Virus record (IMG/VR): IMGVR_UViG_3300033407_000007
Location: 6,546-70,545 of that record
DNA length: 64,000 nucleotides
Source of the DNA: a virus
Lineage: Duplodnaviria; Caudoviricetes
Direction: 5' to 3' (one strand)
Part shown: piece by piece, positions 62,371-64,000 of the stretch
Layout of the letters: each line of letters opens with the position of its first letter
Numbering within the stretch: position 1 is the stretch's first letter
The notes under the pieces: generated by a model
What the model was told of the DNA's origin: nothing
What the model saw: the letters and a program-made list of their open reading frames with translations, nothing else
Databases searched by the model: none
Program-made: the position numbers and the translations under genes

Positions 62371-64000
62371 ATGCCGAGAGTACCCGTACCGAGCGAAACA
62401 TCCGATTTAAGGCCCCTAGCACGCCGTCTAAGGGCCTTGCAGGACCTCCTGAGTAATGTAGTACCCGTACCCGAGGAGTGGCTAGGAGGACGCGCTAGGG
62501 CTTCTGCGAATGTAGCTACCCTGACCCCCTGCACGTCGTACGCCAAGCTGGTCAACGCCTGGCGGCAGGCTCTGCGGTGGACGGACGGGCTGGACTGCTC
62601 TCTGAGCGTAATGCTGGCTGCCAGTGCCAGTACGTGCCTGATGGGAGAACAGCTCTGGTTCAAAATCATTGGCCCACCTAGCTGCATTGGTCCAGACACG
62701 CCAATCTATGACCCAGTGGCTAAGACCACCAAGACAGTGTATGAGCGATGGAAAGATGGCAGTAAGTTCTGGGTACTGTCAAGGAGGGTGGATGGCTCTT
62801 ACGTGACAGCAGAAGCGCTGCCCCCTCAACAGCACCCAGAAGCAGAACTCGTTAGATTGGATTTTGCATCTGGTAAGTCAATCGTGACTACTTATGGTCA
62901 CAGGATCTGGAATGGGTCTTCTTACTGTGACGTTGCTTCCATCGTTCGTGCCTTGCCTGAATGCGGGACTTACCGTCTTCCGTCTTGCGAGGAGGAACGC
63001 CAGATTGTTGAAGCGCACGACGCATCACAACCTGACCAATGTGTAGGTGCTGACATATCTCAGTATAGGTTTGACCGTTCTGGTACATCACCACAGCTTC
63101 ACGTTGCTTCCACTCAGGACATTTCACAGGCATCACTGTACTCCGTTGCTAAGGGTAAGGTATTGGCGAACCTATTAATCTTACCCGTATTTGATCACAT
63201 AGTAAACGCCACACCGTTAGGTCTTGGGCATTACTACGATTTCTGTGTGCCAGAGACGGGAAATTACTGGGCTCAAGGAGTATTTCACCACAACTGTGGC
63301 AAGACCACGGTGTTGGAAGGTCTCTCGATCAACAAGCAGTACGTGTTCAGCAAGGACAGTATACGAGGGTTTTATCAGGGATGGAAATCAGAAGACGGTA
63401 GTGACCTGTCCATCGCTGCGATGGCCAACCGCATGACGCTGGCTACCAAGGATGGGGACACGCTGCTGAAGAGCCCTAACCTGTCACAGATCCTCAGCGA
63501 GGCACGAGGGTTGTACGACCGTGTAGGGCGCACGCATTACCGCAACGCGGTAATGAACGAGTACGAGGGCCATCGTATGACATGGCTGCTGGCTGGCACT
63601 AAGTCTCTGCGTGAGATCGACGCGTCAGAACTAGGTACCAGATTCCTGGACTGCGTGGTTATGGATGATATAGATGATGAATTTGAGGATGAGGTAATGT
63701 GGCGTGCCGTCAATCAGGAGGCCGAGGCCATGATGGCCGAGAGCAACGGCGACCCAGACAATCACCATCCAGAGGCCCTAACTCGCGCCATGAAGATGAC
63801 CGGTGGGTACTTGTCCTATCTGCGTGAGAACGTGGTAGATCTATTGAGTCGCGTAGAGTCTCCTCCGGAAGACCGTCGTACCTGTGCTGCTTATGGTAAG
63901 TTTACGGCCTATATGCGTGCCAGACCGGTTAGGGGAGTGGACGACAACGAGGTGGACCGGGAGTTTGGGGCTAGGCTGGGCAAGCAAATGGCTCGCCTGG
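62371..64000 (+). CDS. P-loop ATPase/helicase, intein-containing, runs off the window (not in ORF track)
   Basis: Frame open from ATG 62371 to the edge; spliced Walker A GPPS|[11 protein letters not shown] Walker B-like. Confidence 0.8.
   Translation, partial: [543 protein letters not shown]
62683..63294 (+). mobile_element. mini-intein (204 aa) inserted in Walker A
   Basis: Block A [10 protein letters not shown]; block B TTYGHRIW; block F YYDFCVP..GNYWAQG; block G HHN followed by Cys+1; no LAGLIDADG/HNH on the sense strand. Confidence 0.92.
62888..63133 (-). CDS. HTH protein encoded antisense inside the intein
   Basis: GGAG 7 nt before ATG 63133; KQREAVVMYQNGQTYTEICQHLHIGQVVMRRALQQSGV. 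Confidence 0.6.
   Translation of the reverse strand: MPVKCPEWKQREAVVMYQNGQTYTEICQHLHIGQVVMRRALQQSGVPPRKTEDGKSRIQARHERWKQRHSKKTHSRSCDHK

Follow-up and report, generated by a model that had tools for sequence, protein, structure and literature searches.

Inteins that carry an endonuclease gene on the strand opposite to their own are a known, rare architecture. Antisense LAGLIDADG genes have been described in the DnaX intein of Synechocystis and the SpoVR-like intein of Chloroflexus (Gorbalenya 1998 and Gogarten 2002, both cited in bioRxiv 10.1101/2025.01.02.630785), and a cyanobacterial dnaX intein shows frame-dependent selection, in which the endonuclease frame is conserved and the intein middle is not (bioRxiv 10.64898/2026.09.14.751524). 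In inteins of actinobacteriophages, Gosselin, Arsenault and Gogarten (bioRxiv 10.1101/2025.01.02.630785) reported LAGLIDADG and VSR-like genes in antisense and EndoVII-like genes out of frame, with HNH endonucleases in frame only; that study proposes that a free-standing endonuclease gene invades the intein, and predicts decay to mini-inteins and split inteins. Two further arrangements are close to these, namely the fractured genes, in which a free-standing GIY-YIG or Vsr-like gene lies on the same strand between the halves of a split intein (Dassa et al. 2009, PMC2677866), and ShiLan, where an out-of-frame HNH gene is hidden in an in-frame, non-intein insertion of a phage methylase (Arsenault et al. 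2025, PMC11855218). Here we analyse an intein in a stretch of 64,000 nucleotides (the window) from a soil virus of the Caudoviricetes (IMG/VR record IMGVR_UViG_3300033407_000007, positions 6,546 to 70,545). The intein, at 62683..63294, splits the Walker A motif of a P-loop ATPase, and its opposite strand holds an open reading frame (ORF) related to genes for helix-turn-helix (HTH) proteins with an HNH nuclease. Judged by homology, it most likely belongs, in decayed form, to an antisense HTH-HNH variant of the known architecture.

An earlier reading of the window (the sequence-only reading) had taken this arrangement to be undescribed, which is too strong, as antisense LAGLIDADG and VSR-like genes in inteins were already published. 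The HNH type in antisense seems unreported: the literature that we searched in full text contained no account of an intein with an HNH gene in antisense. As in the antisense-LAGLIDADG inteins, the endonuclease ORF of the family described here is separate and lies over the disordered middle of a contiguous intein, with an open sense frame and frame-dependent selection. The differences are that those genes encode LAGLIDADG enzymes within cellular genes, whereas here HTH modules and an HNH_3 domain are found in phage P-loop ATPases, and that the window copy has no nuclease domain. With the actinobacteriophage inteins the family shares the phage context, the insertion of several members at nucleotide-binding sites, and the antisense or out-of-frame position of the endonuclease genes. 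In contrast to their in-frame HNH genes, the HNH_3 genes here are antisense and come from phages of soil and other metagenomes and from an alphaproteobacterial genome, and the family adds to that survey a set of decay relics (an HNH-deleted form, mini-inteins with tail remnants and a split form). ShiLan is similar in that an HNH homing gene occupies an alternative reading of an in-frame phage-gene insertion while the host frame stays open, but it has no splicing domains and its HNH gene is in another frame of the same strand, whereas here a HINT (Hedgehog/intein) element carries an antisense gene.

The window element is a class-1 intein with a HINT fold, as established by its sequence, a family profile, a structural model and alleles without the insertion. 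It comprises 204 residues on the plus strand, from Cys1 (TGC at 62683) to the C-terminal His-Asn (CAC AAC, ending at 63294), followed by a +1 Cys, and lies between the two halves of Walker A, G-P-P-S at 62671..62682 (+) and C-G-K-T at 63295..63306 (+; TGT GGC AAG ACC). The N-terminal splicing lobe (residues 1-105, 62683..62997, +) includes block B, TTYGH, at 62887-62901 (+). It is modelled with a pLDDT (predicted local distance difference test score) of 93-98, and is further delimited by conserved columns and by matches to inteins in the PDB; the block A and B residues C1, T70 and H73 are invariant across the family alignment. The C-terminal lobe (residues 168-204, 63184..63294, +; pLDDT 95-98) contains blocks F and G in a 21-residue stretch, with the motif YYDF.VP..NY...G..HHN invariant in the family and the block F Asp present. 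Overall, the AlphaFold2 (AF2) model of the intein exceeds pLDDT 93 for residues 1-105 and 168-204. The family profile matches solved PDB inteins at 1e-8, and the top 40 Foldseek hits of the model are all inteins, the first being the Mtu RecA mini-intein (E 4e-8, template modelling (TM) score 0.87). The Pfam Intein_splicing model alone gives E 0.029 for the window intein, which is below its cut-off.

Between the two lobes, in the endonuclease slot, lies a sense-frame linker (residues 106-167, 62998..63183, +) which is unconserved in the family alignments and modelled with low confidence: averaged over ten residues, pLDDT is 69 at 101-110 and 34-64 across 111-170, and it stays below 50 throughout residues 119-160. 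The sequence-only reading had found an intein at exactly these positions, with blocks A, B, F and G splitting Walker A and a featureless sense middle, and both observations hold. The closest structural matches are mini-inteins and endonuclease-deleted inteins (the Mtu RecA splicing domain, Ssp DnaB and Npu DnaE, target-normalised TM 0.82-0.88), which, like the window element, are HINT domains without a nuclease. The window intein differs from them in keeping a disordered insert of ~60 residues that is the reverse strand of a gene remnant. We propose that the precursor would be translated straight through, with the two HINT lobes folding around the ~60-residue disordered loop at the usual endonuclease insertion point, and that splicing would restore GPPS-CGKT. 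Since its catalytic residues are intact and the host ATPase is probably important, the intein is likely to splice still.

Alleles without the intein were found in a soil metagenome run from another study (X2). Two contigs of this run fuse position 62679 to 63295 via TCA, lack exactly the 612 nt of the intein and encode GPPS-CGKT. This exact absence shows the boundaries and the insertional nature of the element at the DNA level. The two contigs represent two different relatives of the host gene, ~82-88% and ~95% identical to the window over 62439-62679 and 63295-63900, and both have TCA for the Ser codon beside the insertion site, where the window has AGC. Contigs identical to the window are also present in run X2, and intein-plus and intein-minus alleles may thus coexist in one soil sample.

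The antisense ORF runs from an ATG at 63133 to 62888 on the minus strand (81 aa, or 82 aa from a GTG at 63136), behind a GGAG Shine-Dalgarno-like motif (63141..63144, -) with a 7-nt spacer. Its stop codon (62890..62888) falls within the codons of block B, and the whole stop-free stretch (62891..63148) measures 258 nt, so that the GGAG, ATG, stop position and open frame of about 250 nt noted in the sequence-only reading are all present. Two parts can be distinguished in the ORF. The first is a predicted three-helix HTH (63002..63115, -), the counterpart by homology of the HTH located immediately before the HNH domain of intact family genes; in the AF2 model its helices (residues 12-23, 28-35 and 39-49) reach pLDDT 89-95 and are followed by a long helix. 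The second is a basic tail (62891..62992, -), homologous to the C-terminal tail of intact genes (CPKWTEDG...), which overlaps the N-terminal lobe of the intein. In BLASTP against the intact antisense gene of relative L005, the window HTH aligns with residues 66-99 (E 1e-5) and the tail with residues 189-226 (42% identity over 38 aa, E 4e-7). The two segments abut near 62992/62993, which places a deletion junction, ..QQSGVP|PRKTEDG.., at 62990..62995 (-), with ~95 codons of the HNH core missing relative to L005. When the phage's own record was searched with the L005 gene, just two pieces matched (query residues 58-94 and 191-221), and HNH_3 (PF13392) gave no match in the window ORF or anywhere in the 70.5-kb record. 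The HTH and basic tail that had been proposed are both supported, by the modelled helices, by phmmer matches and by alignment of each part to the family gene.

Relatives with the intact gene were collected by a protein search with the intein region, followed by alignment scans of IMG/VR, GTDB genomes and JGI metagenomes. The first protein search returned three proteins with the same intein in the Walker A motif of three different ATPases, and with longer featureless middles. From the scans came 36 loci, located on viral, metagenomic and bacterial contigs; the intein lies just before xGK[S/T] in every one of them. Intein sizes are bimodal, with eight distinct mini-inteins (141-166 aa) and 16-17 distinct long forms (269-347 aa), the uncertainty being due to L028, the N-terminus of which could not be fixed. 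All long forms contain an intact antisense ORF of 169-305 aa, encoding one to three HTH modules and an HNH nuclease. A search for inteins of this kind, related to the window's and with a longer HTH-HNH ORF in antisense, had been suggested as a check in the sequence-only reading. Pfam HNH_3 was above its gathering cut-off (24.8) in 12 of the 13 scanned ORFs, with 26-43 bits, and the thirteenth scored 20.4 bits; in L030, L034, L035 and L037 the ORFs were instead inspected for the motifs. The intact ORFs share a single relative frame, with antisense codon position 1 opposite sense position 1, and the window remnant has the same frame. The antisense genes start 104-161 nt before the end of the intein and, with the exception of L028, stop 55-211 nt after its start, and GGAG-like motifs precede the intact genes in L005, L014, L015, L019, L020 and L025. 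Relative to L005, the window ORF has no first HTH, a module that several other members of the family never had. One of the long forms, L030:3004-3840 (Paracoccaceae bacterium GXU_MW_L88, JBLEFH010000006.1), is a 279-aa intein with an intact antisense HTH-HNH gene in a bacterial P-loop protein (..LLAS|SGHGKT..).

A chance open frame with a spurious likeness to an HTH is an explanation to which we give almost no credence, even though the frame itself is unremarkable. Within the long reading frames of the window, stop-free antisense stretches in this relative frame reach 86 codons or more 16 times, and for the window alone the synonymous-permutation P for the open sense frame is 0.058, so the open antisense frame by itself does not exceed chance; Pfam HTH models also stay below their cut-offs. 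What goes beyond chance is the homology of both halves of the ORF to the antisense HTH-HNH gene family: one half aligns on one side of the HNH core and the other half on the other side, with the relative frame of the family kept, and phmmer against 1.84 billion proteins returns 68 matches at E <= 1e-3, mostly multi-HTH proteins. The top match, at 2e-11, has 274 aa and contains three HTH modules besides a weak match to HNH.

To measure the constraint between the two strands, the nuclease protein was kept fixed, synonymous codons were permuted and sense-frame stops were counted. The 17 intact genes contain 0 sense-frame stops, against 3.3-12.3 expected, with P(0) at most 0.008 for each gene. Given the frame relation, NTT, NCT or NTC before a codon that begins with A produces a sense stop. 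In agreement with this rule, Ile before an A-initial codon is encoded by ATA in 19 of 19 cases, while ATT dominates elsewhere in the intact genes, and the dipeptides of Phe with Ile, Met, Thr, Asn or Lys (F[IMTNK]) do not occur in them. In the HNH core of 12 genes, differences at antisense codon positions 1, 2 and 3 amount to 0.36, 0.27 and 0.63, and amino-acid identity is 60% in antisense against 23.5% in sense. This pattern is the reverse of that of sense-frame coding and indicates that in the HNH core the antisense frame is the selected one, whereas in the tail, which overlaps the N-terminal lobe of the intein, the codon-position pattern evens out. The dual coding is therefore selected and not accidental. 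A separate observation concerns the end of the N-terminal lobe, where the reverse strand of the nuclease tail motif CPKWTEEG gives the sense sequence LPSIS (window 62972-62992), which is degenerate in mini-inteins that lack the homing endonuclease gene (HEG).

A split relative serves as a natural control. In L010 (IMGVR_UViG_3300049489_001113, 1-2010), the same intein family is found in an AAA-type ATPase, in which an ORF for the N-extein and the N-terminal intein part (IntN, 1..663) ends in a stop, the antisense HTH-HTH-HNH gene is intact at 467..1162(-), and the ORF for the C-terminal intein part (IntC) and the C-extein has its own start, ATG 1183, behind an AAGAGG motif. Here the sense frame has been given up, so the constraint to avoid stops vanishes: the nuclease gene of L010 has 6 sense stops against 6.65 expected, two of the forbidden Phe dipeptides, and Ile-ATC before an A-initial codon. 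L010 has exactly the three-ORF layout of the fractured genes, but in those the three ORFs are on the same strand and the nuclease is GIY-YIG or Vsr-like, as opposed to an antisense HNH gene. The sense frame of the window intein is continuous, and the two-ORF fracture is a feature of L010.

Taken with these data, a scheme for the family can be proposed. The homing nuclease is encoded by a separate antisense gene (one to three HTH modules plus HNH_3) and is not a domain of the intein protein. Intact genes would be translated from an antisense transcript, often with a Shine-Dalgarno-like motif and ATG of their own, and the enzyme would cut or nick intein-less P-loop alleles, leading to homing. 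The nuclease gene does not extend beyond the intein at either end, and for this reason selection acts on its codon choice so that no stops arise in the sense frame. The window copy has lost ~95 codons with the whole HNH core by a deletion that is in frame on both strands and joins the last HTH to the C-terminal tail. The intein would then be unable to home by itself, and would stand, as a stage of decay, between full elements and the mini-inteins of orthologous genes. We put the probability that the window ORF is a decaying homing-endonuclease remnant, in an intein that is splicing-competent but immobile, at roughly 85%. The sequence-only reading had offered two alternatives, and of these the remnant of a homing endonuclease gene in inverted orientation, with the sense frame kept open, is supported by homology to the antisense HTH-HNH gene; the dual-coded regulator found no positive support.

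Orthologs of the host gene are found in several states, which are empty (X2), full (L005/L006/L033 and L034), HNH-deleted (window) and mini (L003/L004, L007, L031 and L032). In the splicing-lobe tree, a weakly supported branch (62/44) has the inteins of the window's host gene on one of its sides. Mini-inteins are nested inside clades of full forms, L009 and L021 with L014 (91/89) and L032 with L005/L034 (92/89), and in several of them parts of the nuclease tail can still be recognised in the same frame of the antisense strand. The end points of the deletions differ among the HEG-less relatives and seem haphazard. The simplest reading is that the antisense gene was deleted repeatedly and independently, the window copy being one such intermediate; by its sequence, the window copy is a degenerate derivative of the antisense-endonuclease inteins and not a functional member.

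Several observations weigh against the reading as a decaying remnant. Nothing marks the ORF as silent or useless, and its GGAG, ATG, unbroken frame and well-modelled HTH could also mean that it is used. No close relatives of the window intein were found in single-protein scans of IMG/VR or JGI metagenomes. The HTH matches in Pfam, Sigma70_r4_2 (E 4.4e-4, 20.3 bits) and HTH_23 (2.7e-3, 17.9 bits), do not reach the gathering cut-offs of 25.7 and 24.6, and Foldseek of the ORF model returns HTH domains exclusively, none of them significantly (E above 0.5). PHROG DNA-binding families match the antisense ORF at ~1e-3, and the homologous HTH exceeds the Pfam cut-offs in L005, L013, L015 and L022.

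The intact start signals, the 81 codons without a stop, the confidently modelled three-helix HTH and its phmmer matches would also suit a functional DNA-binding protein read from the antisense strand, which was retained when the nuclease was lost and could serve as a regulator of the host gene or as an occupier of the homing site. That the deletion took exactly the nuclease and left a tidy fusion of HTH and tail could be taken in the same sense. However, a deletion that preserves the sense frame also preserves the antisense frame, so this fusion would arise automatically and needs no selection. Moreover, ~44 codons of the ORF lie outside the constrained splicing lobe, and open antisense stretches of such size are common in the window. 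An HTH-only form was seen in no other family member found, and the HEG-less relatives have other end points. We consider a working protein unlikely. Unlikely, too, is a more specific version of it, in which the expressed HTH-plus-tail protein would bind the P-loop-coding homing site or its own promoter region, and so regulate the ATPase gene or shield the allele from related nucleases; if true, it would be the first case of a domesticated antisense gene inside an intein. Conservation of the tail was set aside as a proof of tail function, since the tail overlaps the constrained splicing lobe. We also rejected an alignment of the sense sequence EAHDASQ with the QQDAPR column of the family as a kept HNH-antisense sequence, since the antisense reading at that place is HTH and not NGEHL. 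A scan of 62300-63700 for promoters and terminators gave no terminator and one promoter-like site on the minus strand (63387..63358), which is no more than the shuffled expectation of 0.9, and was not used as evidence.

A decaying remnant could still be carried to new sites if a related full-length HTH-HNH nuclease from a co-infecting phage mobilised the intein in trans at a shared P-loop target. Full-length genes do occur in inteins of orthologous host genes (L005 and L034) from environmental samples, and intein-less alleles are found together with the window's phage in run X2. The phage itself, however, has no full-length gene or HNH_3 domain, and L005 and L034 are only ~50% identical to the window host protein, which leaves both a shared target and co-infection as conjecture. 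We regard mobilisation in trans as very improbable.

The decaying selfish element in the window is in itself ordinary biology, and the wider weight lies with the family, a group of P-loop-targeting inteins with an HTH-HNH gene on the opposite strand over 0.5-0.75 kb. It bears the signatures of two-strand coding in the absence of sense stops, the Ile-ATA rule, the forbidden Phe dipeptides and a selection that switches strand along the gene. A single set of relatives shows every stage of the homing cycle and of intein fracture, from empty and full through nuclease-deleted to mini-inteins with remnants and a split form, and relics of this kind were predicted by the models in Dassa et al. 2009 and the 2025 actinophage preprint. 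There is also a risk of mis-annotation, as gene callers may choose the antisense gene and break the host gene, or label the intein middle as hypothetical. At E <= 1e-5, 3,714 database proteins match the antisense nuclease of L005, under names that include 'CsgD family transcriptional regulator', 'transposase-like protein' and 'antirepressor'. Proteins so named are likely mis-named homing endonucleases, a share of them apparently nested in inteins, and among the thousands of HTH-HNH_3 database proteins there may be some whose genes likewise lie nested in antisense.

The host gene (62371..63999, +) encodes a P-loop ATPase without family assignment in a replication module, where a DnaG-like primase gene adjoins it. 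The exteins gave no usable family match in Pfam, PHROG, NCBIfam or the PDB (the latter searched with a five-sequence profile of the C-extein), and tblastn of GenBank phages with the host protein returned no match. Orthologs of the gene were found in P0001, L003, L005, L007, L031, L032 and L034. The ORF leaves the window at its edge and resumes at the start of the viral record (L002 3..569), which is 70,545 nt long and circularly permuted. Window positions 63738-63999 recur at the start of the record (L002:3-260) with a two-codon difference (SPPEDRRT against SPRRRT); this repeat marks the record as circularly permuted or terminally redundant, and as the assembly of a mixed population. Upstream of the ATPase gene, an ORF of 163 aa (61825-62316, +) matches DNA adenine methyltransferase models only with residues 100-141, which correspond to the model's C-terminal part (positions 165-201 of 226), and may be truncated, split or mis-started.

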